Shown in pieces: positions 20,601 through 41,599 of a stretch of 64,000 nt of DNA. The stretch covers positions 608,673 through 672,672 of the forward strand of contig NMRA01000020.1 in the NCBI GenBank assembly GCA_002633005.1. The letters are read 5' to 3'. This DNA is from Phoronis australis (lineage: Eukaryota; Animalia; Phoronida). Position 1 is the first letter of the stretch; every line of letters starts with the position of its first letter. Both the position numbers and the translations under genes were made by a program. The notes under the pieces are model-generated. The model made no database searches. It was not told the origin of the DNA and worked only from the letters and a program-made list of their open reading frames with translations.

Positions 20601-23600
20601 AATGCTTGTGTATTGGGAGACGCAATGTTTTTAAATCAATTTCAAGCAAACACATGTTTATTTTTTGTTGTTTGAAGAATTGTTGAATAACAGCAGGTGT
20701 GGTATTGAATGAAGTTTGCTCAAAGCTGTGATAAGTAACTAAATTTTATGTCACATAATATTGAGTTGAAATGTTGGCTTTTTGAACCTTTACTATCTGT
20801 GTCGTCATGGCATCAGTCAGTAGTTTTGTGGTGATGATCGAATGTTGTTAATAGAACTGTTATCCCTTGGATTATAGTTCCTTCCCTGGTTAATTGACAA
20901 TTGAAGTATTTATAGTGCTGTAACTGTTCACTCTTTTTAATGACTAACAGTTGACATTTTTGTGCCAGAAACCTGGAGTGGTACTTGCGTTGGCTGCACT
21001 GTATCTCACCCAAGTGTTAGTCTCGCGGCATGCATGTGTGGTTGTGCCATATATGTATGGTTGTGCCATGTATGTATGGTTGTGCCATGTATGTATGGTT
21101 GTGCCATGTATGTATGGTTGTGCCATACATGTGTGGTTGCGCCATGTATGTATGGTTGTGCCATGTATGTATGGTTGTGCCATACATGTGTGGTTGTGCC
21201 ATACATGTGTGGTTGTGCCATGTATGTATGGTTGTGCCATGTATGTATGGTTGTGCCATGTATGTATGGTTGTGCCGTACATGTGTGGTTGTGCCATGTA
21301 TATGCATCACAAAATGGACTATTGTTATCAGTGGTCAAAAAGCTCTTGTGGAGGGTAACAAATCTGAACCAGTGAACTCCACTGTCATGGTGGGCCTGGT
21401 GTCAAGTTAAGAGTCAAAACTGGCTGTACACACAAACTTTTAAGAAATGTTTCACTGCCATACTCAAACCAAAAGGAAAATTTTTAACGATAGTACTGTC
21501 CATGGCTTTTAATATTTTTATGCTCCCACTTATTCATGGGTGCATGTTTCTGTCATATACCTAAACATCTGGCGTCCACTACTGTGTCCCCTCAATCCCT
21601 TACCACGATCTTAGTGAGATTTTGTAGATGTGCTCCCATGGAGCTGATGACAGATGACGAAAAGTTTCGGACCTATCCGACTACAGCTGTGTCCCCTCAC
21701 GGCAATTTCATTTTTTCCATTTCCTTCTTTATCTTGGACTTCCTTGACGGATTCTCATGAAATTTCGCAAAAGAGGTTTCTGCTAAAAAGACGTCGGATG
21801 GAGCTTATGTACTCTATGCCACCTAGTGGACAATTCGTTTTTGAGTCCATCTCAAACGATCATTATAAAAATCGCCGTATGTTTTCCCGATGAGAAGACG
21901 ACTAATGTTGGTTTTCGAACGAATCTGAGTACTGTGGTGACACTAGTGCATCTGTAGGATCTTTGTGAAATTTGGCAAGTGAATTCTAATGAACTTGACA
22001 ACAGGTACATACAGATCTGACTACCGTTGTGCTTCCTAGTGCCAGTTTTATTTTGACAATTGCTTCTGTATCTTTTGAGTTTCTCGACTAATTTGCATGC
22101 TATGGGACAATAGATTTTCCCATTTTCTGACCAAGTTCAATGTATTCTGCACCATCCATATGATATTGATAAGCACCCATAGAAGCATACCATTTGCTGT
22201 GCAGCCGTGAGTACATTTCAGTGCTTTGCGTTTCTGTTGTTTTGCTCTTCACCAAGTCACACCTTGCATTCATAAATTTGGTATTGTTTGGTCTGTGCCA
22301 CGAGAACATGTACTTTGTCTTTTACATCACACAGCCTCACTTCTCATATGTTCTTACAGCCCTTCAGCCAAGGCGCGTGCCCAACGGCCCTGGAGAGATG
22401 GGCAGGGCAGTGGTGATCCCGCCAGACAAGAAGGCGTATTCTCAAGAGCAATTTAAGATCAACCAGTTCAACCTTGTAGCCAGTGAGATGATGTCACTGA
22501 ACAGAAGCCTGCCGGACTACAGAATGGAGCAGTGAGTACAGCCGCTTAGACTATAACATGCACATAGTGTCTGATTACATGGCAGATTCTCTCATCTTCT
22601 GTCTAAAAAATTTCCGTATATGTTCATCAATCAGTCCGCAGGTGAAGTAGGTGCGTATGATGCGTAGTCAGTGTCACGCATACCGTATTCGCCGTAGTAA
22701 CCGCCCATGCCCCTATAAGCGCCCCCCACGCGTTTTCAGACTTTGCTGAAATAAGCGCCCAGTCCATGAACGTGTACATGCGAACAATGACGTACCTTCA
22801 GTCCTAAAACTCGGCTACAGTAACGTCTTCAATTTATCAACAAAAAAAATTTTCTACGGGTCTTCTAGACCACCAATGGCACTGCTACATTTGTATTTAG
22901 CCGTGACTATACACTTCAAAGTAACACAGCGCTTCAAAAAGAACGCAACAGCGTTGCTACTTTCGCGACGACTGTGTCCCACTATGGTCTGACCTTTCAG
23001 TAGACACATCGACTGTTTAAATAACTCGGTGTTGAATGCACGTGGCCAGAAAGCGCGCGCTACATATATGAACCTAGCTGTCATCAAAGACATTAGTCGG
23101 GAACTATCCATTCATGAAACGGGTAGCATAGCATCCGTAAGAAATGAATATTGGCCCTAATTTCCGACAATTTCTAATACTATAAAACATGTTTGCGTTA
23201 TTTTTTAAAGGGATTGTTTGATTAACCATAATTGATGTTTTTAAACCGAATATCCGATAAAATGACAACTGACAGTGAATGCTTGCACACCCTTACACCG
23301 AAAAATAACTGTCAGATAGTTACGTACGCATCCAGCTACACGGCGACTAATATGGGCGGCATAATATGGGCCTTACCGAAACAAATGTCGAACGTTTTTA
23401 GCACGAGACTGGCAAGTGCTGAATGAAACACGCTCTGGTTTAGGCTTACTGCTTGTGCAAATTTCTTTAGACGCAATGCACATCTAGCTCGTTAGATCGC
23501 GTGGCTCTGGCCAAAAGACGGTCTCTGCTTTGGCAAATGAACTCTGGTTACACGCACGCGCTCGCTTACTCGCAGACGAACTTCAAAACAAACGTCACGT

Positions 23601-26600
23601 GACAACAACATGTGTGTTCGTCCAGACATTTTTCTCGCCATGTTGCCGATCATACATGTAGATGGCACGATGTTGCGCAGATTTGTACTTAAAACTGCCG
23701 TAAATCCAGACTCCACGGGAACTTAAAAAAAGTCTTAGGGACGCTATTTAGAAAACTTAATGAGGATTTCAGGTAATTTGCTTGAGTCGAACCTATTTTT
23801 ATTGAAGCATTGAAGTCGCCATATCGAAGACGGCAATTTTGAGGCAGTCATTCGGCGAGTTTTCGCCCTGGGATTTCAGCACAATTTTCTGTAAAATGAT
23901 CGTAATTTAGCAGCAAAGTTTGATAACAATGCACCACAGTTTTGTTGGAAGTCTTTCATAGATTACAGATACGTCACAGAACGTAAATTTGATGAATCTT
24001 AGCTTCCGATTTCACCCGTTTCGGAGACCGGGTTTCAACCGCCTTGGGTTATAATAAGCGCCCCCCTGAACAAAACTTTTCTAAACGCCCTGGGCAGTTA
24101 TTACGGCGAATACGGTAAACGATGTGCAGCAGTGGCCGCATGGTATGCAGCAGTTGTTGCATGGTGTGCAAGACTTAAGTTAGTGCTGCATTGTTCACTG
24201 AGACTGACTTCCATCTTAATGGATAATTTTTGCCATGCCTGGACACTGTGCACAGTGTATGTGTTTAATTTTCACAGCTTTCTTTATGTGCACTTGCACA
24301 TAGTCTCAGTGTGGCTATTTTGGAGGCGTATAATTAGTCATGTGACATGTCAACTGATTATGTGAAACTAGGTCTGGTTCCGTAGATTAGGGTAGAGGGC
24401 AGCACAGTGTACCACGTATAAATTGAGTACACAACGTTTAGCAAAATCATGCGCGGCTAGCACTACGTAGTGAGACGGCTACATTCAAATGAACGCTATT
24501 TGTAGTTTGGGTTTGTGGTAATTGCACGATTCGTTTGTTAGAATGACAGACATGCACATTTATTTTGCTGCTCAAATTTGCTAGTAGCATGAGCCATTTC
24601 AGTCGCCATCTTGTCGTGTATTTACTATGGGCCGAGTTTGTTGCTGGTTTTTTCAAGAATTTTTGTTGGCATGTGAATGGAATTTGTTGAAAACTTTTTT
24701 GTGTTTATTTAGTCATGAGGAGAGAGTCAGCTGGAAATAGTTGCTTTGAAATTTCACCAATATAAGATGAGACTTTGTTCACTTTTTTGAAAACAACTTC
24801 ATTTTGTACTAAGTCTATGTCTTGAGACCTTTACTGGAATCCATATTCAGCATAATGTTAAAGTGTGCTTGGCTTTTTGGTGTTAAGAAAGGCTTACACT
24901 AATCTGAGAGGTATTTGAAGGTGCAATATATGAGGAGATATCGGACTTGAGGGGACTATTTAATTGTATGGATGGGAATATTTGGGCCTTGAGAATTTCT
25001 TGTGATGTTTAAGTGTTTTTCTAAGGGGAATGAAGTCGATACTTGGTCCCAAAAGTGAGGCCTTGAGGGCCCTGATATGTGCTGTCACCAGTATTTCTCT
25101 TAAAAGGGGAATAGTTGTTGGTAGATGTGTTATAAGTTTCAGACTCACATTTGGACTTCCATTTTCAGGTGTAAGTCCAAAGAGTATAACGTTGAAGAGC
25201 TTCCCACAACCAGTGTTGTCATTGTGTTCCATAATGAGGCATGGACTACGCTACTTCGCACTGTTTGGAGCATTATCACCCGATCACCACGCCACCTGTT
25301 GAAGGAGATTATTCTCGTGGATGATGCTAGTGAACGAGGTAGGTGACTGATGGTGCTTCCACATTGGTGTAGATGACTGGAGTCCCTTAATTGGTGTAAA
25401 ACTCAGTCTATTCATTCAGAAGAATGTTTAACTTTTCTCATGTGGATTTTAGTATACCTTAAAGTAATTAAAGTTTTCAAAAGGGACACAAGTAAACAGA
25501 TGAGTCGGGTGGTTATAAGGGTCACGAAGGGTTGTCCAGGACCAGTTGTCATTTCTTAACCAAATTAAATGGTCCATACTAAAGATTAGCACTATTTTTT
25601 GTATGTAAAAAGGGTGATATGGAGACTGAACTGATTTGTGGCTGATGCTGGAGTCCTATGCATTTAAAGTCGAACAATAGGTCTGGAAATTGACTTGGAA
25701 TTTAGTAATTTGATGCAGTTACACAGTTTTGTGTATGTCTTTTTGATGGATTTGTCATGCCTTGGGAGATAAAGTGTAATGTTTTTGTACACAAATAAAG
25801 TGTAATATGATTGTGTAGTCGAAATTTGCTTCGTCACAACTGAACTCATTGTCACGAACAGCGCCAATTATAAGTGAACCATGACATTGTGCTAGCTCCA
25901 CCTATACGTGAACCATAACATGCTAGCACCATCTTTTGGTGAATCATAACATGCTATTTGCCATCAATAGGTGAACCATGATGTTGTGGTAACAGCATCA
26001 GCAGGTGAACCATAACATCATGTTATCGCCATGTCATATGTGAACCATGTTATGCTAGCGCCATCTATATTTGAACCATAAACTTATACAACCGCCACCT
26101 GTAGGTGAACCATACCATTATGTTAGCACCATCTTTTGGTGAACAACAACGTTATGCTGGCACTGTCTATAGGTGAACCATAATGTTATGCTAGCTCTAT
26201 TTACATGTGAACCCCAACATTATGCCAGCACCATGTATAGGTGAACCACAACATTATACTGGCACCATCTATAGCAGAACTCTTCAGGTATGTTTCATTT
26301 GTTTGTAGATTTCCTGGGCAAGAGACTAGAGCAGTACGTGGCCACTCTGCCCGTATCAGTCAAGGTGATAAGGATGGGCAAAAGGAGTGGATTAATCAGG
26401 GCCAGGTTGACAGGTAAGTGGTTTAATGACCTATGGTCAGGGGCTGACATGACCACAAAGTCATAAGAATAGACAGGCAGTCTATTGGTTTTAGTTTATA
26501 GTTCTGAGCATTTGCTAATAAGTTCTGTTCTCACCGGAATAATGGCATTAACTGATAGCATAGTTCTAGGTTTGGAAAAGCTTAAATTCTTAACATATTA

Positions 26601-29600
26601 TAATGAATGGTAGACAGTAAATGTTTTAGATAGTTGGATACAGAATTGAGAACTTGATTCTGTGAGTATATGAAATCTTGTCAATATTTCTCAGACCCAT
26701 AATGGTACATGTTCAAGTAGCGTCTGTTGTTGCATAATGTGAAGTCTTTATGTGCATTTGCCGTACGTTGTAAAGTCCGGATACACATTTGCCGTATTGT
26801 AAAATTATTTTGTACATTTGTTGTGTAGGTGCTGAGGCTACAAAGGGCAACGTGATCACATTCCTAGATGCCCACTGTGAATGCACAGAGGGCTGGTTAG
26901 AACCACTACTCTATGAAATCTACAAGGACAGGTAAATTATCTGTTGGCTGGTGAAATGTCTTCTCATCATTATGTTTAAATTTGTTGTTGTACCAACTGA
27001 TTAGAATGTGATCAAAGATCAGAAACTCAAATGTGTGAATCGATAATCATCAAATCAGTGCTCATTCTGTAATATGTTTTCAGGACAAATGTGGTTTGTC
27101 CAATCATCGATGTGATCAGCGATGAGACATTTGAATACATCGCAGGGTCAGACATGACGTGGGGAGGCTTCAACTGGAAGCTCAACTTCAGGTGGTACCC
27201 TGTTCCACAGCGGGAACTGACCCGCAGAAACAATGACCGCAGTCTGCCTCTCAGGTGTGTATACGTGCCTCTCAGGTGTGTTTATGTGTGTTTTAGTGTA
27301 TTTTGTGATGTCGTGTGCACTTTGGATTTGTTGTTTTCAAAAAAATGACAAAATTGTAGTGAAATTATTTTGTTTTGTCTAGCCAGTGCAAACATTCTGA
27401 AGAATTGGATTTGGGCTTGAATTTGTTTTTGCGTCATTAAGGACATATTTCAAACAGGTTCGGGGATGGGCCGCGCAAAAAGAACATTCTTTAGTTTACT
27501 CTCAACTGTTAAGCTACTGGAAGCTTTTTAATAACATTTTGGTCATGTCAGAAATTTACTCCCTGGGTATAATCCTCTGGCACTGCCTTCACCTCACTAC
27601 CAGATGGTAGTTCTCAGTGGCATGTCTTAAAATTTTTATTGGCCAACGCAGAAATTATTTAACTGTATTATTCTGCTGTAACAGTGAAGAAGTCTGTGTT
27701 TGATGTTTCTGTTAGCATCATTTGTTTTTTGTTGTAGGTCACCAACCATGGCTGGTGGTCTTTTTGCCATAGACAGGAGTTACTTCTATGAGATCGGATC
27801 CTATGACCCAGGCATGGATATTTGGGGTGGCGAGAACTTAGAAATGTCCTTCAGGGTGCGTCATCTTTTGTAGTAAAGTTTTAGCCCCACGCATGTGTGG
27901 TTTTCTAGGCAGAAACATGCCACTTATCATAATGGAAGTAACTGTATTATGCTGCTGATATAGTTTTCATCCAAATGTTTCGTGCAAGGCAGAATTGGAC
28001 ACTTTATGTTAAGTAATTTGTTGAAATCGGTTTGCTACATGGAATTAAAGTTTGAACGTTCACGTGCCGGTTTCAAATCAACGTTCTGTTAGGCTCAAGC
28101 TCTAAATGCCTAAGGATTGTAGTCTTGGTGTCTTGGTGTTTTTCACTGCGTAATAATTTTTGCTGTCTTGGTTTGGCTTTATGCTGTTACTACAGACACT
28201 AAATGTGATTTTTACGAAATCTCGCATCTAAACTGACTGAAGTTTGGATAGAATGAAAAAATTTGGACTTTCATTTTTATGCGCCCACATATTATATGTG
28301 GACGCATTATGCCGTCATCTCTGTCCGTCCGTCCGGGCGGCGTCCGGCATCCGCTGCTCTATCTCCAAAACCCTTTGACATACGTTCATGAAATTTGTTC
28401 CATTCATGAATGGGACGGCATGTGCGAACTTTCGGACGGATGCGACTACCGGTGTGCCCCCTAGTGGAATTTGGTATGTAGGCACGTATTAGTGAGATGA
28501 TGCTATCCTGCCGTTTTCAGATGGATTCGACATAGTTTGCGTCACCTAGTGGCCATTTTTAGTGTTTTCGAGTCTGTTTTTGTGCGTCCACCCCTCTATC
28601 AACCAAACCGCTCAAAGGATGATTGTGAAAATTGGCATGTATATGCTTACTATGTAGAGGACGGTTGACGATGATTTTCCGACGATTTCGACTACTGTNN
28701 NNNNNNNNNNNNNNNNNNNNNNNNNNNNNNNNNNNNNNNNNNNNNNNNNNNNNNNNNNNNNNNNNNNNNNNNNNNNNNNNNNNNNNNNNNNNNNNNNNNN
28801 NNNNNNNNNNNNNNNNNNNNNNNNNNNNNNNNNNNNNNNNNNNNNNNNNNNNNNNNNNNNNNNNNNNNNNNNNNNNNNNNNNNNNNNNNNNNNNNNNNNN
28901 NNNNNNNNNNNNNNNNNNNNNNNNNNNNNNNNNNNNNNNNNNNNNNNNNNNNNNNNNNNNNNNNNNNNNNNNNNNNNNNNNNNNNNNNNNNNNNNNNNNN
29001 NNNNNNNNNNNNNNNNNNNNNNNNNNNNNNNNNNNNNNNNNNNNNNNNNNNNNNNNNNNNNNNNNNNNNNNNNNNNNNNNNNNNNNNNNNNNNNNNNNNN
29101 NNNNNNNNNNNNNNNNNNNNNNNNNNNNNNNNNNNNNNNNNNNNNNNNNNNNNNNNNNNNNNNNNNNNNNNNNNNNNNNNNNNNNNNNNNNNNNNNNNNN
29201 NNNNNNNNNNNNNNNNNNNNNNNNNNNNNNNNNNNNNNNNNNNNNNNNNNNNNNNNNNNNNNNNNNNNNNNNNNNNNNNNNNNNNNNNNNNNNNNNNNNN
29301 NNNNNNNNNNNNNNNNNNNNNNNNNNNNNNNNNNNNNNNNNNNNNNNNNNNNNNNNNNNNNNNNNNNNNNNNNNNNNNNNNNNNNNNNNNNNNNNNNNNN
29401 NNNNNNNNNNNNNNNNNNNNNNNNNNNNNNNNNNNNNNNNNNNNNNNNNNNNNNNNNNNNNNNNNNNNNNNNNNNNNNNNNNNNNNNNNNNNNNNNNNNN
29501 NNNNNNNNNNNNNNNNNNNNNNNNNNNNNNNNNNNNNNNNNNNNNNNNNNNNNNNNNNNNNNNNNNNNNNNNNNNNNNNNNNNNNNNNNNNNNNNNNNNN

Positions 29601-32600
29601 NNNNNNNNNNNNNNNNNNNNNNNNNNNNNNNNNNNNNNNNNNNNNNNNNNNNNNNNNNNNNGGTGCAATTGTGGGCGCATTTCAACGCTCTGCATTGCTC
29701 TTGTTACGTTTAAGTTTATTTATTCTTTCCTTTGATTTGGACGTCTATTGTTTCTCTCCTGTTGTTCTATTGTCTGTCATCTCTGGATGTCTCCAAACCA
29801 GATCTGGATGTGTGGTGGCCAGGTGCTTATTGTCACGTGCTCCCATGTAGGACACGTGTTCCGCAAGGCGACGCCGTACACTTTCCCCGGCGGCACAGGG
29901 CGCATCATCAACCACAACAATGCCAGGCTATCGGAAGTCTGGCTGGATCAGTGGAAACATTTCTATTACAAAATCAATCCAGGTTAGATAATGCGATAAA
30001 GCATCGCATGCGAATGGTCATGTTTTAGACTTGCCTGCATGGCTATACTTGACTTGTATCTTCAACCGCCTGACTGTTCTCTGACCTCAGGTAGTGCGGT
30101 GTTCACCTAAGACTTGGGGTTGAGGTTACAATGTTATTTGCCGTTGCATGGTAGTTGTGTCTCCGAGGGCAGTACCTATTGTGGTGTTCATTTCCAGGAG
30201 TTAAATGTAATCAAAATAAACAGTTCGTATTTCATATTCATTTGAAGTAAGACTTCACGTGAAGTATTTTGCAAAGCGTACAGTGTCATTTGGATTTCAT
30301 TACTTCCTCGATGCACCACACGTAATGTCCTCAGGAAACATAGTGCATTATTTTGCCTCATTGTGCGGCTGTTCTAAACACGCATTTCTCTCCATCATTC
30401 ATTCATTTCTGCACACAACAGGTGTGGATGTGCGGGGGCTCTGTCTTGATCGCCACGTGCTCCCGCGTCGGACACGTCTTCCGAAAGGTCAGCCCATACT
30501 CGTGGCCAGGTGGCGTTAGTCGCATCCTCAACCACAACACCCAACGCACGGCCGAGGTCTGGATGGACAAATACAAGAACTTCTATTACAAAATCAGCCC
30601 AGGTTCGACCTTTCACTCTTGACCTCTGCCTCTGAGGTCAGACCTTTGACTCAAAGTGTCCTCTCTGGTTAAAGTTGCTGTGTCATTTCAGTGGGCAACA
30701 CCACATTCACTTGCTGTTGCTTAATAAGAAAAACCTTCTTTTTAAACGTATCAAAATAACCTGTTAATAAAAAACTTCATGAGATTCGATTGTGAGTTGT
30801 TTCACTAGCCTCACCCAGTGTATATAATGACTGACTATCTCACTGATGCAGTGGGTCTGATCATGTCGATTAATACTGACTGCATGTATAACATCACCAT
30901 GACTGTAATTAATGGAAGTCATGCCATCTATTTCTTAAATGCCTGAGGAACCTTCTATTAATATGATGATCATAATGACCATTAGTTAAGAAATGTCCAC
31001 TGGATGACATGACAACTTCATGCTTGAATGTGTTTTGCTGTCGCCGTCTGCTTTCAGCTACTAACTTTCATCGTTTCTTCTAATGTTTGCGTTTGTTCTG
31101 TTTTCTAGGTCTGTGCGGCTTATTAACATTTATTAACCAATTGTTGTTGTGTCTGTCTATGAGTTGGCTGCTCACCAATTTGTCAGCATGCATCATATAG
31201 TTAGCTGATCACATGCTACTTGGCATGCTTGTGCTTCAGCTTGAGTTCAAGGGTTACTCGTGCAGCTGATCTCTGTGTGTTTGCATAATATGTGTGTGCA
31301 TGTGTGTGGTAGAATGTGTGTCTGGTTGTTGAAAATTGTTTCACTGTCTTAACACTGTCACTGAACAGCACCAGCCGTGCGCAGTAGAGGGGAATGAGAA
31401 CGCAGTGTTAGATTTCTTTTGGCTGTGTTTAATTGTTAGTCACCACAGTCATGTTCTGCCTTTATTTTGCATCGTTTTATCCAAAATCTTGTTAACTTTG
31501 AAATCATTCTTTACATAGTTTTCTTAATATGAAGTCTTAATATTAAGTGCCTTTCCTTTAAGAGCCAATCAACACCCGTCCATCAATCGATGACATTTCC
31601 ATGGAAACAAAGCCACCACTGTCTAGACTTTACATTGTTCATCTTTGCCTGTACCATTAATTGAGTTAAGATGGTTGCATTCTGTAACCAATCAAATTAA
31701 TTGCATTTTGTTTGGTGCATTGTCAGTTGACTTTCAAGGTTATTACTTGTTAACCCTTTGAAGCAAACGTTGCTGTAATCCAAATACAACAAACAGCATC
31801 ATGTCTATGAAAGCTTAATATGCTATTTTGCACCACTGGTACATAATGGATATCAGTGTCATGAGAGACAAGCTTCGTGCTTGCCTGTGTTAACCATCCA
31901 CTGTTTTTGTGCTAAAATCTTGTTTAGTTTTTCTCCTTTTGTTTTGACTTTTAATTTGCTTGCATTGATGGTTAGTAAACACTGGAGAACTAGACTAAGT
32001 ATCGATTATTTGTGGTCCTCAGTGAAATACTATGGTCACTTGGGATCTATTAGTGTTTTCACTGTTACGGCTGGTGGGGTTTTTGTTATCCAGTTGAGTT
32101 TCAGATTCGCACTGTTTGTTGTGTGTGTAATGTAGTTTGCGTTCACTTGTTTGGTGTTGTTTACTGGCTGTTCTGAGTATTTGTTTTTAGTCTGGACTGC
32201 TGTGGCTGTGATGGTAGTTAGATGTTAATCTTTTTGAATTGTGATTGTCGCTTAAATAACTGGTCTCAAAATTCTGCAGGCCAGGATACTAAGTGATTTC
32301 TAAAATTAAAAAGAAATGGAAGGTCACTAATGATTGATAGAATGCAGTACAGTTATGGGGGGGGGGTCTGCCCTGTCAAAATGCCCTGGGTTGTTGTTGA
32401 TAATCTCTGAATGATGTGTTTTGGGATTGACATATAACTATGGCTGAAGTCTAGTGTCGTGTTATATCATGGTACGGAAAGTTTAAGGTGCGTTTTGTGT
32501 GGTTAACAAATCAGGTGTTTGTTTTAGACAGTGACTTCGAGGATAGGTCCCTGTAACGCCTGCTAATGCTGAGTGATTGGTGTTTATAAACTCTCGTGGA

Positions 32601-35600
32601 GGCTATTTTATTTTTGTTTAAAACGAATCACCTACAGTGTAATAAGGGTGTTTTCACTTAGTCAAAATGTCACCAGTCCCACATAATCAGTCTCCATTGC
32701 TTCTTGAGAGTCTCTCATTGGCTGACCAGTGAGGTGTGTTTTCTGGAAAGCTCAATTTAAGTTAAATCGGACTTTCGGGTGCGTGTCCTAACTATTCTGT
32801 TTGTAATCACATAAGGCTGTGTTTCGATTCTGTTTCATATATTATTTTTCAAAACTGATATCAAGATTTTCAGGGTTTTCCCTCTCCTTTGTGGCACTAG
32901 GACATGTAAGTCGACCAAATTGGGATAGCAGAGGCACATTTCATGTCAGATCTTGCATTCAATTTTTAAAATGAGCCAAACATAATCTTATATAACCTCA
33001 CCCCAGATGTGTTCTTACATGGCCTTGCACCATACATGGTCTTACAATTCCACTGGGTTTGATGAGCTATCTTCCCTCAGATCACCGTTTTGTATTTTTT
33101 AAATCTAAAAGCTGAAATGACAATCCTAAGTACGTTGATGATTTCGCATTTTATAAAATTTCTCAAAATAACTTTTGCTGCATTACATTGAATGGTTTTG
33201 TGAAATATAATCCAGAACAGGGTCGCATTGATTTTAGTAGTCTGTTAGAAAGTTTCGACTATCCTAGCGCTTAGTATGATTTATCCCGTGTTATCGCCAG
33301 GCGTACGGCAGACAGATTATGGGGATGTGTCCGAGCGCAAAGCTCTGAGAGAAAAGCTCAAATGCAAGAGTTTCCATTGGTACTTGGAGAACATCTACCC
33401 CGAGTCACAGATGCCTCTGGATTACTACTCTTTGGGAACAGTGAGTGAAATTATCGTCTGCGATGAATTAGTCATGCTCTAGTCCTGAATTAAATGGTGT
33501 TCATGAAACTGCGCGTAAGTGGAGTTGACATTACTATCTACAGACTGTCTGCATTGAAGCTTGGATGCCTTTTTGAAGTTCTCTGAGGAATGTGTGTGTG
33601 TGTGCGTGCATGCGTGTGTTTGTGTGTGTGTGCGTGCATGCGTGTGTGAACCAGACATGAAGTCAGTTTTATGAAGAGTGACCAAAGTCTTTAGACAGAA
33701 CTTTGGTCTTATACTCCCTATTCACAATTGCTGAATAAGGATAATTATGAGAGCATCACGGTTTACAAATAATACATTCAGCAACTAGCAGTTTTCAATT
33801 GTGTAACTACATTCTTGGAGATTTTGCGTTTTTTTTGCGCAAATGACGTTTAATAGTTTTTCAGAAATAGTTCTGCGTAGCACAAAATCAAATTTCGGAC
33901 TTAAGTCTCATCTAATTCTTCATGAGACAGACCCCTGTTATAGTTTGGACTCTGTAGTTAAATTTGTATTACACGTTTCCATAACGTTTTTGCCTTGAGA
34001 ATGACCTGAGTTGTGTCTTTAACGCACATGTGAGATTCCTCTGATTGACCATAGGAAACCCATTTTCAATTGGCTCATGCTTTCATATAAACTGACAAAA
34101 TGTGCTTGTTCGTAAGGGGTTTGTTGATGTTATGTTCAGCAGCTGTGTTGACTCAAAATCACTTGTCATGTAGAACTATTTACAGTCCTCTGTTACACAG
34201 TGAGCATATGTTTGAAGCAGATGGATCTTGTGGGACCCTGATCACATGTAGAAAATTTAAAATTTGAAATCTTGCAACTTGTTGACAGTTCAGTATCACT
34301 GCATCATTGCTAGTCCATTGAGTATGTATTCAGCTGCTGATGTAGCATTTTAGCTTTGTTGGTGTATACCGTAACCCCTGTGTGATGACTTTCAGATAAA
34401 GAACAAACAAACTGGAAAGTGCCTTGACAGTATGGGTCGAAAGAGTGGGGAGAAACTGGGAATGGTCAACTGCCACGGAATGGGGGGGAACCAGGTATTG
34501 GGATTGTCAGTCGTGTCTGCAGACAAACTTGGAAATTATTATAATCAGTATTCAGACTGTCCGATTGTCAGGCTCACTTGGCAGATAGATTTTAGAGAAC
34601 AATTAAATTTCGAAAATTGCCAAATGTGAAATTTACATGGAATTTACTATGACAATATAGAATGGAAAGGATTTTGTATAAAGGTCCTGTGTGATTAACT
34701 TTGTTAAGTCTTCGCCTATTTAGTGCTTGCTGTGACTGACTAGTCTGATTTTAGTTTGATAAATTTCTCCACAAAAATGTAATGGTTTGAAATGCACAGC
34801 TCTCATTATACAGAACCCAGTGAAAGTTTGCTCGTTGCAAGGTTATCGGCCATTGAAATGATATTTTAACAATTGCCTTGTGTGAAATAGGCGACGAATT
34901 GCCATTAAAGTTTTTAGTGATTATTTGAAGATAAAGAAGGCAATAATGTTTAATCCCATGTCATCCCCTGTCTCATTTACTCTTGAATGTATTGAGACCA
35001 TAGTTTTGTGTGTTTTACTGTCTATTAACTTAAGTGTAAATAATGCATTTCAAGCCACGGCTAGTTGACTTGCTTGATCAGTGCTGAGAGCTGTGCTAGA
35101 ATTGCTGTCATGTTGAGTCGTTCATTGTTTTTTGTACGTTTTTCTCCTGCTGCCAGATTTTCTCGTACTCAAAGAAGAAGGCATTTCAGACAGATGACGT
35201 CTGCATTGATGTGTCGGCCGTCAACGGTCCCGTCAATCTGTTTCAGTGTCACGGGCTGGGGGGAAACCAGCATTGGGAATACAACCGGCAGGTTTGTCAT
35301 GACGCATCACCTTGCATGGTTGATGTCGACGTGTGAAGGATGTAGGGAATCATGGACAGTCTTGATGGCAGGAGGGCTGTTTCACACATTATCTGACTGT
35401 CCTTGTGTGATTTTGAAAATTGTCTTGGAGTTTTGCTTTCCCAGCATGACTTCTGAGATCTTAAAAATGGTCTGTTGTATGAACCATTGAATTTTGTTTA
35501 AAGTTGCCAAATCCTTACTTTTTTAACCAATTTTGATTTTACGAATTGTCACAATTTTTGTTCTGTAAACATGCCTGTTACCAACAGCTAATAAATATCC

Positions 35601-38600
35601 ATTGTATTAGTGCCACATGGACTATATTTCTCAGAATGCAAGGAACACAAACAGATACAGTATGAAACTGGGCCCCTGAACTGTTTATCATTGCACACAA
35701 TATGCAAATATTCTCCCAGGTGTTTGTGTTTGTGTGTAACGGTTTTGAGACTCCACCCTTCCCTCATCTCTCCTGTCCATGATTCGTCGCCATCGTTCAC
35801 GCCCGGCCCCGTCATCTGTATCACTAACACGGCTCGTCGTTTCACCTTCGTATTTTTGCTCTTCAGATTTTTTCTTATGTGGCCACCAAACAAATACAGG
35901 CCGACGACCTGTGCATAGGTGCACAGTACTACACCGCCATACTAATGTCTTGTCACACGGTGTCCGGCGGACAATGGCTTTATGATCGACAGGTAGTGTT
36001 GACGCATCTCCTGGGAAGGGTTTGGGTATCTGGTCTGGAAAACGTTTTAATGTCTGCCAGTTGCGCTGTTCACGCTTTTTCAATTTTTATGAATTTCGTG
36101 TTGAGTTTTGTTCGAAAGCTTTGAATTTTTTTCTCTGTTGAAGAACAATGATACAGTTATTGGGAGCATGTTAATAAAGCATTTTGTTATTATTTAATAA
36201 ACGATGGTCTACTGTGGCAGTCAAATAAGTAGATGTTTTAATTTTTTGATACTTTAAAAAGGAATGACTTTATCCTAATGATATTTATTGCATAATTCTC
36301 CGTAGCACCGGAAAATTCAGGGATTTCATTTATGGCGCTGCTTCTGTATTTCAAATGCATTGTGTGAGGGTTGTCAGTTTGTACTTACTAGGTGATATCA
36401 CAGATTACTTGTTGATGTGTACACAATGTGAAGGAAAACTTGCGCACACGAGAATTATAAGCAAACTCCACTACAACATGTCTTTGGGTGCAAGTGTAAC
36501 AAAATAGCCATCATAGAAGAAATAAACAGTGAAAGTGAGCCTCTAAAGGCATCAATATTTGATTAGCAATTTTTGGCGGAAGATTTTCGAGTCATGCCCC
36601 ATCCAGTCGTTTGGTGTCGGATCTCACCACCTGAAATGCAAATCATGAAACAAGTTATACACCCACAAGTTATCTATGTTGTCACTAGATGTTTATGAAC
36701 TGACAAGTGTCCCACAATGCATTTGGGTAACAACAGCACCGCCACAGGTGAGATTGCCTGAATTGAGTTGTTTGACCAGGTCTCAAATTGTTGTTTGCTT
36801 CTTATTTGTCAAATAGTCGGTGTGGAGTGCTTGGTGCCCTGCTTCTTTAGTTTCTTCTGAATCGTCAAAACATGATTCATGTTAGCCGAAATCCATTTTT
36901 TATCAAGTAATACGGTTGATGAAAGGTTTGTTCAGGTCATGTAGGACTGTGGCTGATCTAAATGAAACTTTTAGACACTTCCCTTATGCGCTACTCTCCT
37001 AAATGCTGTTAGGGATTGGTGTTGAAATTGTCCACCTTTGCATGAGGGCTTTCAAAAACAAGAATGTCTAATAAAATTTGATCATGCTATTAATACTTTC
37101 AAAGTATCATGTTTTTGCTAAAAACTTGGTCATGTGACCTAATGAATGACAGATTTGTAAAAAGTCAAAAATCAAATTCTACAGGCTTACTATGTTGGAA
37201 AGATAAACTTAGAATCTATAGGTTTGTAGATATTTGGCTAAGTATACTAAATATAAAAATAATAATTGCAGGTGGTCTGGTATACGTTGTACCAGACACC
37301 TCAGGTTGGCCCATTGCACTGATCACCTGGAACCATTTTTATGCTTTGTTAATATATAATAGTTAAAATGGAGCCGAGGAGTTAGAGACCTGACTCGAGG
37401 GTCTAGCAGTGTACCCCAGTGAGTCTTGCACCCACGACTTTCAGTTAAAGAAGTAGGCACTTATCCTATAAAGCCACTCTGCCTCTTGTCCTACAAAACC
37501 TTATATCAACCGCAAAATCTTATCACCAGGGGTGGATCCAGGATTTTTAGTTAGGGGGGGCATGGCAGAGTATTAGTCAGGATTTTGCCTGTCAGACATT
37601 CGCACCCCCCATCTGACAAATGTAAACTGGGAGAATTTTAGGGGGGCCATGGCCCCCCTCTAAATCCGCCACTGATCACATCAACCTGATCCTGTTCTTA
37701 ACTTGAGATTGTTGTTTTAGCTGGTGGAATAGATGATGGACCGTTTTGTAGTGTGGGGTACTTGAATGTTTTTGTGGCTAGGATTCCCGTTTCCCTGTCG
37801 CTCTCCTGTGTGTTGGGATGAGCTTGTCTATGTATGCTCAATCCACCTCTATAGAAAATTACGTGGTGGGAAGTTTCTTAGTAGTTTTTTTAGCTAATGC
37901 AATGTAGTTGAAGGCTGCAGTCATCCAGCACAGTTGACTCCTGCAGCTTTGCTTGTTAAAGTTTACTAATTGTTTATTGTGGTCAGTTGTTGGACAGGAG
38001 CTTGTTTGGGATGCTGAGTCCTGCTGTCAGACCAATTATAAAATGAGGGACTAAGTGTTGAAAGTTTTTAAATTTAATTTTGTACTTTTTGGTTCAATAA
38101 TTTGATTTTTTATTTTATTTGGTACATTTTATACTTTTCTAATTAATTGGAGTTTTTGTTGTAATTATTATGTTAATTTTCAGCTTGTTGTTATTCTGAT
38201 CATGATGCCATTTTCCAATCCACCGGTGACTTAAATCATGGACACATCTTGAAAATTAGCCTATTGTCTCTGCATGATTCCCTGTGCATGGAAAGAAATG
38301 TCCCATTCCTACAGATTAGTGACTATTGCTTGACCTTTTCTTGCCCATTTGGAACACGTAATACAGTAACTGTGAATGACCACTATTTCTAGACGTTTCT
38401 GTGTAGGGTTAGTTTACCAGTGAATAGATCCAGATTATTTAGCTTAAGGCTGCATTCCGTCTTGGTTTAGCTGTCGATGTTGAATTCTTAACCAAAGCAC
38501 TTTGTGGTTTTAAAACATTGCCGTGCTCATCTGAGTTATTGACCAATAAATCTCTGAAGCATTTTTTGAGGCACTGATGGTTTCGATGTTCTTGTTGGTA

Positions 38601-41599
38601 ATGGATGTAGAATCGTGTTTTGGCAAGAAGTATGAGACTGAATTTATGACAGTTAAATGTTCCACAGGGTGTAATGCAGCTTTAAAATAGGAAAGAGTTA
38701 CATCACCTGGAGGAAAGCCAATGAGTTTGGTGTTGGTTTTTGACTAGCATACAAATTCCTCGTTTTCTTTAAGACATTTTGCCACTGTTAATTACTGTTC
38801 GCCTCGCCCTAATAACTGTGTAGTATACTTAGTGAAGCGACATTAACGGCTTAGTGAAAAGTCCTCGTCTTGTTTCTGCATTTTCTGGCATTGACTAAAA
38901 CAAAATGGCCATCTCAGTGTTTAAAAATAGCGTTGCACTCCGGTTTCGTGTGTCAGTGCTGTACCCCAGTACAAAAACGTTAATTACCGATATTCTACCT
39001 CCATTTGCCCCTCTATGTACCGAATCGCTAAACGAATCGTGAAAATTGGGAAATGTGTTCTTACTGACTGTAGCAAGACTGACATTCATTGATTTTCAGA
39101 TGTTTCTGACTTCTGTGGTGCCCCCTACTGTCATTTTGTTATGCACCTGCGACTGTATCTCCTAAACCCCTTGTAGGATTTTTGTGAAATTTGACAAAAT
39201 GCATCTCTATGAACGTGACAACGTATGACCACTTCTCTCGAATGAATGTGACTACCACTGTGCCTCCTGGTGATAGTTTTATTTTTTTACAGTTGCCTTT
39301 ACAACTTCAAAGTTCATAGACAGATTTTCATGAAATTTAACAAACGCAATAGATTTCCATAACAAATATGACGGTGCCTTTCCATTTTCAGACGAGCTCT
39401 ATGTATTGTGCGCCATCCAGTGACCATTTTTTGTAATAAACACCTGGGTTGCATTTGTTTTGCAGTCGTGAATGCATTTCAACGCTTAAGATTGCTCTTC
39501 TGCTAGAAACAAAATTTTGAAAGGAACAGGTTACTGATAATAAGTGGAGGTGCAAATGTCATTGGAGAATTGAATTATTAGTTGAGATAACACCAACATT
39601 GACTTTCTTCTCGAAGTGCTGTTCCCTATGGTTACAAAAGACTTTGAGACTACCTGTGTCAGCATCTTGTCTATAATGTCTGGCCCCACTTTTGATCTGT
39701 GGACAAAATTTGCTAGATATTGGCTGATCAGTGAAGTAAGACCATAAAACGTGAATGGCTTTAAAGACTAATATAATCATATAATGAGTAATTTGATAAT
39801 TGTACAGTGTGCAAAAACTTTCTTAGTGGACATATTGCTCAGTGCAAAACTAAGAGAGAAAATAATTTATTTTTTCAAAGAAGCAACTGGATTTCCAGTA
39901 TCATTACTGAGAAATGCTATGATCGAAAAGGTCGAAAATTATCTAAAAAGTGGCGCATGTCAGCTGAGCAAGTGACAGAAAATTTTTTTGGCTAAATAGT
40001 TTTTCATAAGGTTTCCTAATTTCAACCACTAGATGTTGTTCAATTTAAAAAAAAAAATGTCGCTATACCTGCGTTCCACCCACGAAGCAAAATTGTGACT
40101 TGGATCAGTTGCCGCTATGAAAAGGGTGTTGATTAGATCCTTACTGGTATGACAAGCAATTTCTTAATTAGCAAAGAACTGACCAGATGATATTTGCTGA
40201 GACCATGCTCAGCACAATATGACACGTCGTGCCGAGCCAACCCATAGAGCCTGATGTCTAGCAGTCAAGAGACTGTCAAGTCTTTTGAAACGCTGGAATC
40301 ATTTGCAAATTGATTAGCAATGGGAACAATTTGGCTTTACAAGTTGGCTTGTCGCGGTGTGCTATTTTATGCTCCAACCTTTGTTTCATGGAAACCCATA
40401 AATATCACTTCTTATCTGAGTACGGAGTTGTGACAGAATGCATGTTTAAATCACAGGATCACTTATGGCAACATGCCTGCATTCCAGCCCAAAAAAAAAA
40501 CAGCTTGATTTAGACCATCAGAATGGAAAGACTTGATCGGTGTTTATTGCTCGAGACCAGCCTTGATAATTTCGCTTGGAGGGTGGAACACAGATTTACG
40601 GCTGCTTTAACTGCTAGCTGTTAAGTGAAGCTGATGCACTGTGCTTTTACCAAGAGTTTGTGAAAACATATACGACAAATGCATCGGGATGATTTCAGTT
40701 GTGCAGCTTTACCCATGGCAAAATAGTGTCGGTTTTTGACAGTCCACCAACCATGATTTTACTGACAGTGGTGAACATCTATTGACCATGTTCTCCCTGT
40801 TGTTAGAACTCATGTTTCTGATGTCTGACCCATATTCATCTTTTTGCAGACTCTTACAATAATGCACACTAACTCCAAGCAGTGTCTCGACACACCCAAA
40901 CCAAATGAACCTAATGTGCCATCTCTTGGTGAGTTTTAAAACTACTAGGTCACTGAATACTATGCCAGTGTCCATATCATGTATTGAATTTTTTACACTG
41001 CCAGGACTTAATAGTTGATGTGTTCTATGCTTATCATAAATGTCTTTTAAAACAAAAAATGCGGAGTCCCAGATGAACAAATTGGTAAATGATTGAAGGG
41101 TCATAAGTTGGTTGAACTGCTGTCATTGAGTTTAAAGTGAAGGTGTGTACAGCATATCCAAGGGTCACAGCTAGTTTATTGGAACACAGTGCATTTCATT
41201 GTCAAGTCTTGTTCCTATTTAATTCTGCACTTGTTTTAATAATTGAGGCACTGATTAAAAATGAGGCAAGTTTTCTTTAAATTTTTTTCGTTGTTTTTTG
41301 TGGTGGTGGGACATTTTTGAGATGTTGAATTGTTTCAAATGTTTTTCATTTTTGTTAAACTGCAGAGTCATTAGCCCCAAAAGTATTAAGTCTTATTTTA
41401 AGCTACAGTGACAGCTGTTATTGTCATGATGTTAAAATTGAAACACCCGGCTCACGTTTGTGTATGAAATTAAAGTATTCTCATCTTCTGTTGACTTTTA
41501 ACTGTTTTTCACTCATCCAAGACATTTTTTCCAGGACCCTGCAATGGAAGCCCATCACAGCAGTGGATCTTGTCCGACATGGACTGGAACAAGATGTAG
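11477..41599 (+). CDS. GALNT1: Polypeptide N-acetylgalactosaminyltransferase 1/13-like (GalNAc-T, GT27), whole spliced gene span; 13 exon positions, 2 of them duplicated
   Basis: Exons join in consistent phase with GT-AG boundaries: 199+172+170+105+103+171+118+181+140+99+135+79+65 = 1737 nt (578 aa + stop). N-terminal TM anchor, FHNEAW, DAH (DxH), WGGENLE, VGHVFRK and three ricin-type CLD/QxW repeats. Assignment to the GALNT1/13 subfamily is from recalled similarity. Confidence 0.95.
12391..12640 (+). repeat. Minisatellite, 25-bp unit x10
   Basis: caactcatgtcttgggcaatgcata in tandem. Confidence 0.95.
13160..15435. mobile_element. Helentron-associated (HINE/DINE-like) repeats, probably two adjacent copies
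   Basis: 5' tttatgcgcccac..ggacgcat subterminal IR; 3' gtgggcgcat..ttgcgttgctcttgt; same architecture as 28277-29705. Confidence 0.55.
15893..16018 (+). CDS. GALNT1: Candidate cassette exon in GALNT stem region (42 aa)
   Basis: Pyrimidine tract ending tctag|, 126-nt open frame in phase 1-1 ([42 protein letters not shown]), donor ATAG|gtact; GC-richer than the flanking intron. Confidence 0.6.
16718..16830 (+). repeat. Pyrimidine-rich minisatellite (~22-bp unit)
   Basis: ttcccatttcacagctccctcc repeated about 4 times. Confidence 0.85.
18143..18560. mobile_element. MITE (PIF/Harbinger-like termini)
   Basis: ggcctgttgcatgaaacgg ... ctgtttcatacaaccggg imperfect TIRs. Confidence 0.55.
21030..21303 (+). 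repeat. Minisatellite, 19-bp unit x~14 (source of the spurious six-frame ORFs here)
   Basis: catgtatgtatggttgtgc and catacatgtgtggttgtgc variants. Confidence 0.95.
21517..22240. mobile_element. HINE-like repeat copy
   Basis: tttatgctcccac..atgggtgcat start; internal ccacctagtgg/gactac units shared with 28277-29705 and 39100-39500. Confidence 0.5.
22360..22531 (+). CDS. GALNT1: GALNT exon (GPGEMG...NRSLPDYR)
   Basis: ttacag|CC...GAGCA|gtgagt; conserved GPGEMG and [14 protein letters not shown]. Confidence 0.95.
22683..24115. mobile_element. Tc1/mariner-pogo (Tigger-like) non-autonomous element
   Basis: TIRs CCGTATTCGCCGTAGTAACCGCCCA / TGGGCAGTTATTACGGCGAATACGG, TA target duplication, internal ataagcgccc motifs. 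Confidence 0.85.
25169..25338 (+). CDS. GALNT1: GALNT exon ([15 protein letters not shown]...VDDAS)
   Basis: tttcag|G...CGAG|gtagg; GT1 motif. Confidence 0.96.
25860..26275 (+). repeat. Degenerate minisatellite, ~34-bp unit x~12
   Basis: gtgaaccataacattatgctagcaccatctatag-like units ending ~35 nt before the 26309 exon. Confidence 0.85.
26309..26413 (+). CDS. GALNT1: GALNT exon ([10 protein letters not shown]...RSGLIRARL)
   Basis: ttgtag|AT...ACAG|gtaagt; GLIRARL motif. Confidence 0.95.
26829..26931 (+). CDS. GALNT1: GALNT exon with DxH metal-binding motif ([16 protein letters not shown])
   Basis: gtgtag|GT...GACAG|gtaaat. Confidence 0.96.
27084..27254 (+). CDS. GALNT1: GALNT exon ([10 protein letters not shown]...[12 protein letters not shown])
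   Basis: tttcag|G...CTCAG|gtgtgt; a duplicated alternative donor lies at 27275. Confidence 0.95.
27738..27855 (+). CDS. GALNT1: GALNT exon ([11 protein letters not shown]...[11 protein letters not shown]), Gal/GalNAc-T motif
   Basis: ttgtag|G...TTCAGG|gtgcgt, 118 nt. Confidence 0.96.
28277..29705. mobile_element. HINE/Helentron-like element spanning the N gap
   Basis: atgcgcccac (28279-28288) with short IR gtggacgcat, (gtcc)n microsatellite, and distal gtgggcgcat (29671-29680) followed by ttgctcttgtt. Confidence 0.7.
29802..29982 (+). CDS. GALNT1: GALNT catalytic exon, alternative copy A (canonical: [19 protein letters not shown])
   Basis: accag|ATC...CCAG|gttag, 181 nt, phase 0-1. Confidence 0.95.
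30422..30602 (+). CDS. GALNT1: GALNT catalytic exon, alternative copy B ([19 protein letters not shown])
   Basis: aacag|GTG...CCAG|gttcg, 181 nt, same phases as copy A, no stop or indel. Confidence 0.92.
33301..33440 (+). CDS. GALNT1: GALNT exon ([29 protein letters not shown]), catalytic-lectin linker
   Basis: cgccag|GC...GGAACA|gtgagt, 140 nt. Confidence 0.96.
33591..33648 (+). repeat. (TG)n-type microsatellite
   Basis: tgtgtgtgtg..tgcgtgcatgcgtgtgtg. Confidence 0.9.
34396..34494 (+). CDS. GALNT1: GALNT lectin alpha repeat exon (CLDSMGRK...CHGMGGNQ)
   Basis: tttcag|ATA...AACCAG|gtatt, 99 nt. Confidence 0.95.
35157..35291 (+). CDS. GALNT1: GALNT lectin beta repeat exon, alternative copy A (CIDVS...[10 protein letters not shown])
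   Basis: tgccag|ATT...CGGCAG|gtttgt, 135 nt, phase 0-0. Confidence 0.94.
35867..35992 (+). CDS. GALNT1: GALNT lectin beta repeat exon, alternative copy B ([42 protein letters not shown])
   Basis: Branch point cactaac 35822-35828, pyrimidine tract, cttcag|ATT...CGACAG|gtagt; 126 nt, phase 0-0; aligns with copy A (IFSY, DD.CI, CH, QW.Y.RQ). Confidence 0.85.
37365..37482 (-). mobile_element. Possible decayed tRNA-derived SINE
   Basis: Minus strand reads ggcagagtggc...aaagtcgtgggtgcaagactcac, resembling degenerate A/B boxes. Confidence 0.35.
37527..37674. mobile_element. Short MITE (CAGGGGTGGATCCAG ... CTAAATCCGCCACTG)
   Basis: Imperfect TIRs, G/C runs, 5-bp flanking duplication ATCAC. Confidence 0.75.
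40850..40928 (+). CDS. GALNT1: GALNT lectin gamma repeat exon ([16 protein letters not shown]...)
   Basis: ttttgcag|ACT...CTTG|gtgagt, phase 0-1, CLD motif. Confidence 0.9.
41535..41599 (+). CDS. GALNT1: GALNT terminal coding exon ([21 protein letters not shown])
   Basis: tttccag|GA CCC TGC ... CAG TGG ... TAG; final C-x-QQW motif. Confidence 0.9.

Follow-up and report, generated by a model that had tools for sequence, protein, structure and literature searches.

Pairing between intronic sequences is an established means of choosing between tandem exon copies. In the insect 14-3-3zeta, Mhc and MRP1 clusters and the Dscam exon 4, 9 and 17 clusters, a downstream docking site is combined with selector sequences (PMC6071210). 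For Drosophila srp exons 4.1/4.2, downstream pairing is required for the first exon (PMC4691838), and for human ATE1 exons 7a/7b, competing helices together with elongation speed set both exclusivity and ratio (PMC7797038). Message decay contributes as well: in C. elegans, 14 of 19 clusters of non-3n length depend at least partly on nonsense-mediated decay (NMD; PMC4165533).

Members of the GALNT1/pgant5 family of glycosyltransferases, namely GALNT13, Pgant5 and gly-5, are listed among duplicated-exon substitution genes (PMC9741552), and gly-5 of C. elegans carries three exons in a cluster of 3n length (PMC4165533). In Drosophila, alternative splicing into pgant5A and pgant5B swaps the same 60 residues (398-457) as the exon pair described below; the two forms differ in substrate preference, and swapping the catalytic exon alters which mucins the enzyme glycosylates (PMC12776162, a preprint). 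The literature that we searched, with most subscription journals lying outside it, yielded no mechanism of exon choice for fly pgant5 and no report of RNA pairing in the GALNT1/pgant5 family, nor any of lophotrochozoan docking sites.

Either-or splicing of catalytic and lectin exons

We analyzed a window of 64,000 nucleotides from Phoronis australis (contig NMRA01000020.1, positions 608,673 to 672,672), whose + strand carries a polypeptide GalNAc-transferase gene of the GALNT1/pgant5 type. The gene has the domain order GT-A catalytic then ricin-type lectin and is nearest to GALNT1/13/pgant5; proteins of this group with PF00535 and PF00652 are the best named matches of the two catalytic exons, A and B. 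The exons concerned are as follows, with RNA counts given for runs X5, X6 and X7 in that order.

27738-27855, + strand: common upstream exon, ending in phase 0 (RNA joints; its 3' end recurs as the loose end ahead of A and of B)
29802-29982, + strand: exon A, 181 nt (junction reads to 33301: 11, 2, 5)
30422-30602, + strand: exon B, 181 nt (junction reads to 33301: 2, 7, 8)
33301-33440, + strand: common downstream exon (joined in RNA to A or to B)
35157-35291, + strand: lectin exon C, 135 nt, frame-neutral (joints to 40850: 12, 4, 20 reads; Ricin_B_lectin match, E 2.4e-6)
35867-35992, + strand: lectin exon D, 126 nt, frame-neutral (joints to 40850: 3, 16, 25 reads; 41% identical to C)

Exon A encodes the catalytic flexible loop and helix-turn-helix, has a K-A-T loop as in GalNAc-T1, and is 88% and 87% identical in protein sequence to Capitella and Lingula proteins, respectively. 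Exon B is a paralogue of A (67% amino-acid identity) with a K-V-S loop, and its protein is 85% identical to one from Owenia. Both donors are weak (GTTAGA for A, GTTCGA for B). A Lingula gene model contains both catalytic exons in the order found in the window.

About 18-19% of the reads of three raw RNA runs bearing the same species label were aligned to 29720-33480; alignment to a 15-kb target was swamped by intronic repeats that hid the A and B joints, which the 3.8-kb target resolved. These repeats (window 28250-28698, 29662-29705, 37150-37660 and 39100-39400) are high-copy and abundantly transcribed, with RNA depth above 1000 at 28203-28703 versus about 10 for exons, and a gap of 963 N sits within one of them. 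By eye, the introns at 21030-21300 and 25870-26270 hold tandem-repeat arrays, with a unit of about 20 nt and a looser one of about 30 nt.

Over the three runs, 18 junction reads joined A and 17 joined B to the common downstream exon. No A-B joint and no loose end for skipping both was found at 3 or more reads in 29720-33480. The loose end of the common upstream exon led to A in 9 and to B in 3 reads in X5, and to A in 4 and B in 5 in X7, with none listed in X6. A and B are mutually exclusive in RNA from samples with NMD unblocked. The A:B ratio varies by run (chi-square test: p 0.008 for reads and 0.034 for distinct starts). In a further run, X3, which is listed as probable DNA, a spliced B-form contig is present and no A joint. 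No loose end at the common acceptor indicates a third catalytic exon, the 963 N upstream of A being unreadable.

An exon of 181 nt is 3n+1, and messages with both exons, with neither, or spliced at a cryptic donor after B all reach a premature stop. Thus NMD alone could keep the choice exclusive, and the RNA data are explicable without any structure.

The lectin pair C/D is also spliced either-or, and since both exons are frame-neutral it escapes policing by NMD. In the three runs the share of the first exon in the catalytic and lectin pairs was 0.85/0.80, 0.22/0.20 and 0.38/0.44, where the C/D counts are those among the joints listed. These parallel shifts suggest a shared regulator, as judged from three samples, and do not imply linkage within molecules. 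Exon D is divergent and has no Pfam match. A second lectin exon copy was not seen in the homologous loci described below, several of which end soon after the first copy.

A candidate docking site with two partners

The first-pass annotation of this DNA had claimed, from the letters, that an element downstream of exon A (30080-30090) is the exact reverse complement of one downstream of exon B (30632-30642), that the latter can instead fold locally with TGACCTC at 30620-30626, and that such docking and selector logic controls the exon pair. The elements are listed here.

29991-30009, + strand: 7-bp hairpin, 9 nt 3' of the A donor (folding)
30036-30041, + strand: TGCATG, putative Rbfox-type motif (sequence)
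30080-30099, + strand: candidate selector for A (11-bp core 30080-30090, G-U at 30091, bulged extension to 30099)
30145-30150, + strand: TGCATG, putative Rbfox-type motif (sequence)
30619-30626, + strand: local competing arm, the 5' arm of a 7-8 bp hairpin (7-nt core common with the selector for A)
30626-30642, + strand: candidate docking site (core 30632-30642; a cryptic GT donor overlaps it at 30637)
30881-30886, + strand: TGCATG downstream of B (sequence)

Both pairings are present. The two 11-mers are exact reverse complements, each unique in the window, and the local hairpin comprises 7 Watson-Crick pairs and 1 G-U pair (-11.7 kcal/mol, z -2.98). The proposed extension of the long pair exists as well, although it consists of 6 pairs interrupted by two bulges and not of some 4 pairs behind a single bulge. 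A G-U pair brings the long helix to 12 bp and -19.6 kcal/mol, or -26.8 with the extension. The candidate selector lies 98 nt after exon A and the docking core 29 nt after exon B, and 30632-30642 can pair with 30080-30090 or with 30620-30626, not with both at once.

When 29980-30700 was folded, the long helix appeared in both the minimum free energy and the centroid structure, at an overall z of only -1.92. Over four folding windows its predicted pair probability was 0.69-0.80, and that of the local hairpin 0.16-0.27. Constrained ensembles came to -252.8 and -251.9 kcal/mol, placing the two states 0.9 kcal/mol apart at 37 C. At 10-25 C the predicted long-helix probability rises to 0.93-0.94, a dominance in the cold that would fit the B-rich samples poorly unless kinetics or proteins come into play. 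For the real A and B splice sites, predicted accessibility changes little between the states, so any effect would act through looping and proximity, as shown for srp (PMC4691838). The search for an upstream helix that loops out A found none (p 0.15 and 0.48), in an intron partly concealed by the 963 N.

Taken together, these elements would allow the following scheme. Pairing of the docking site after B with the selector after A would loop out B and favor A, while pairing with its own neighbor as a local hairpin would leave B usable. The hairpin would probably form first during transcription, and its loop, with which the extension of the long helix can pair, may act as a toehold. With their weak donors, both exons would respond to such structure; the balance would depend on tissue-dependent proteins or on the speed of transcription, and NMD would clear messages with both exons or neither. 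Pairing would in this way tilt the choice, and exclusivity would not depend on it alone.

The annotation had also pointed to TGCATG, which we take to be an Rbfox-type motif, at 30036, 30145 and 30881. All three are there, with a fourth at 31297, but as an indication of regulation they are weak: two copies in the 439-nt A-B intron correspond to p of about 0.024 against the window rate, and the position is inconsistent elsewhere. Among the homologous two-exon loci, TGCATG lies at +58 to +73 in L039 and L073, is missing from the first 700 nt in L041, and is absent from the corresponding intron in L059 and L061.

Chance, homologous loci and rival readings

We estimated how often such an arrangement arises by chance. 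In 1000 shuffles each, the pair alone occurred with P 0.004, 0.031, 0.073 and 0.298 when 100, 300, 500 and 2698 nt of the downstream intron were searched, the last being the whole intron; native window sequence in the same geometry gave 28/1127, 80/1103 and 120/1079 (2.5%, 7.3% and 11.1%). By an ungapped energy score the long helix ranks first among helices between the two introns at 100, 500 and 1500 nt, with p 0.013, 0.033 and 0.066; a bulge-tolerant score gave the window 0.16 and 0.39 at low penalty and 0.016 at high penalty. Of 8 constitutive exons in this gene, none reached p<0.05. Single-exon homologues did so in 4 of 15 cases at 500 nt and 3 of 15 at 100 nt, which shows that the shuffle p-values are lenient. 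The pair combined with an overlapping hairpin, a criterion set post hoc after the case had been seen, was found in 0/2000 shuffles at 100 nt, 0/2000 at 500 nt and 3/500 with the whole intron, and in 0/1129 and 6/1081 native windows. Thus the pair alone is only modestly beyond chance, and the three-part arrangement is uncommon. Since the tract around the hairpin is a local duplication in which one short motif recurs, the hairpin is more likely to have arisen by chance.

Hairpins shortly after the donor were considered as a mark of such exons and rejected: the window has them at 2/2 of these donors versus 0/11 other donors, and elsewhere only 1/10 donors of two-exon loci has one. A search of Rfam returned no family, with a sole sub-threshold match (18 versus 58 bits); among viral contigs there was no relative, and among contigs of prokaryote genomes one spurious 9-residue match. 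In the polymorphism data of X3 both elements are unchanged, but the whole A-B intron has 1 change only, so this is uninformative.

Homologous loci were collected in one metagenome scan (410 stretches confirmed, best 80 loci kept). Two full exon copies were found in six: L039 and L041, with exon order as in the window and 82-83% amino-acid identity for exon B, and L059, L060, L061 and L073, of arthropod type. We dropped L060, whose introns are identical to those of L059, and left out L055, which has exon fragments (at 206-460, the start of the exon is present as two truncated copies, 5' of a complete B-type exon). The GalNAc-T1-like exon is second in L059, L061 and L073 and in proteins P0059-P0061, an order opposite to that in the window, Lingula, L039 and L041. 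In many other loci, among them L001, L004, L010, L014, L021, L034 and L040 only a B-type catalytic exon, with a strong purine +3 donor, lies between the flanking exons; flatworm and bryozoan proteins are likewise of B type, and a Dendroctonus model has at least 2 copies of the other exon type. Support in a tree of the 60-residue exons is too low to order the duplications.

The exact 11-mers occur in none of the best 80 loci, all of them distant, and one-mismatch matches lie outside the corresponding introns or in single-exon loci. Nor do the A-B and post-B introns of the window align significantly with any of the five two-exon loci. Such structures are usually lost over long distances, according to the ATE1 paper (PMC7797038). 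Between the window and L039, an element that the A-B introns seemed to share did not reach significance (p 0.73).

L073 has a helix of the same geometry and unrelated sequence. About 23 bp long and bulged, it scores -32.7 kcal/mol (z -7 to -9) at a pair probability of 0.94; its arms leave exon 2 in the loop and cover the exon-2 donor. It is a stronger candidate than the helix of the window itself. The introns of L073 span 1348-1457 (110 nt) and 1648-1724 (77 nt), and the docking arm is overlapped at its 3' end by a local hairpin. In L061 there are 15 perfect pairs (p 0.02-0.05, pair probability 0.23), L041 has 15 pairs that reach p 0.049 with whole introns only, and L059 has no such helix. The helix of L039 (-29.5, pair probability 0.99) was rejected; its shuffling p was 0.13-0.26 and it overlaps a palindrome-like motif found 6 times in the locus.

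As controls we picked by eye 15 single-exon loci whose contig includes the upstream exon; 3 of them are GALNT2-like paralogues, and L043 and L044 are near-duplicates. Pairing strength did not differ between the 6 two-exon loci, window included, and 11 single-exon loci (Mann-Whitney p 0.15 and 0.18), a set that leaves out L027, L028, L043 and L044, two of them previously significant. Five combinations of score and window were run for this comparison, and all are reported. A pyrimidine at donor +3 was found in 9/12 donors of two-exon loci versus 0/12 of single-exon loci (p 0.0003, with related species being non-independent).

The proposed logic is thus borne out in part. Exclusivity in RNA, the downstream-docking layout (PMC6071210) and the predicted population of both folds agree with it, whereas the two-exon loci as a group show no stronger pairing. 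We consider it plausible, at about an even chance, that the pairing has a real effect on the A/B choice and that this is a new case of a known mechanism.

What competes most seriously is that the complementarity is coincidental, and that splicing proteins acting on two weak donors choose the exon while NMD removes messages with both or neither. This account has a sizeable chance of being right, if short of even. Both aberrant forms carry premature stops and Rbfox-type motifs are present; the A:B ratio shifts in step with that of the lectin pair (12:3, 4:16, 20:25), pointing to a shared trans factor; the frequency of an 11-bp match in native windows (2.5-11%) and of p<0.05 among the controls leaves room for accident. 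A further point against the pairing scheme is the lectin pair, either-or too with no well-supported helix, its best one being 9 bp (p 0.08-0.5, pair probability 0.01) and starting near the second donor (+21). Coincidence is nonetheless disfavored by the rarity of the three-part layout, by the dominance of the helix in the predicted ensemble and by the looping helix of L073, which is clearly non-random.

We regard it as unlikely that the local hairpin alone matters. In that reading a short duplication placed a copy of the weak B donor 34 nt further on, the hairpin would hide this cryptic donor so that B ends in frame, and the 30080 match would play an incidental or secondary part. Between 30634-30652 and the B donor region at 30600-30618, 15/19 letters match, and U1 pairing is predicted to be equal for the B donor and its cryptic copy (-5.5 and -5.6). 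Use of the cryptic donor would lead to an immediate stop, no joint from it (30636) was listed at 3 or more reads in the RNA runs, and it is predicted to be paired in both folds (unpaired probability 0.00-0.05); the hairpin itself has the low z given above. However, NMD would likewise hide products of the cryptic donor, and the perfect 11-nt match after A, stronger than the hairpin, is left unexplained.

It is highly improbable that the sites are DNA-level motifs, either opposite-orientation copies of TGACCT, presumably a transcription-factor-type half-site, or dispersed-repeat remnants: the core is an imperfect palindrome found 3 times within 560 nt, but the window shows no enrichment (hexamer 17 versus 16.4, heptamer 3 versus 2.9), and the sites have neither a repeat-like excess of read or contig depth nor an Rfam family.

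A bolder version of RNA-based control would have A switched together with C and B with D, a hairpin-versus-helix toggle steering the catalytic choice, and equivalent helices of unrelated sequence having evolved independently in GALNT1/pgant5 genes of lophotrochozoans and of arthropods. We hold this combination to be doubtful; if true, O-glycosylation specificity would be tuned by convergently evolved RNA switches.

Comparison with known systems

The exon pair of the window resembles Drosophila pgant5A/pgant5B in that the same catalytic loop and helix-turn-helix region is swapped (PMC12776162). Unlike in the arthropod-type loci, the GalNAc-T1-like copy comes first and the other copy has K-V-S, not D-K-S.

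Like srp and ATE1, this is a two-exon cluster with intronic pairing, here a candidate, but no upstream helix looping out A was found in the readable part of the intron before A, and the srp and ATE1 pairings are backed by conservation and by compensatory mutants. ATE1 may serve as an illustration of how helices and trans inputs can combine (PMC7797038).

The layout is close to the duplicated stem-loop arm model of Ivanov and Pervouchine 2018, in which an arm after each exon copy is complementary to the other arm, and is the mirror image of Figure 3a in that paper (PMC6071210). If proven, it would provide a clean two-exon test case for the model. It differs in that the two selectors share a 7-nt core only, at 98 and 18 nt from their donors, and common descent of the arms does not follow, the exon duplication being old (Lingula, L039 and L041 share it).

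With regard to the insect docking clusters, there are two exons only, the docking site has its competing partner 7 nt away in a local arm, the host is probably lophotrochozoan, and the pairing is a prediction from sequence and folding. If proven, the case would carry downstream-docking control beyond insects to a glycosylation gene of a lophotrochozoan, an incremental gain given that the mechanism class is established. The likeness to those clusters lies in the tandem duplicated exons, in a complementary element after the last alternative exon with its partner after the upstream exon, and in a pairing that is predicted here to loop out the downstream exon.
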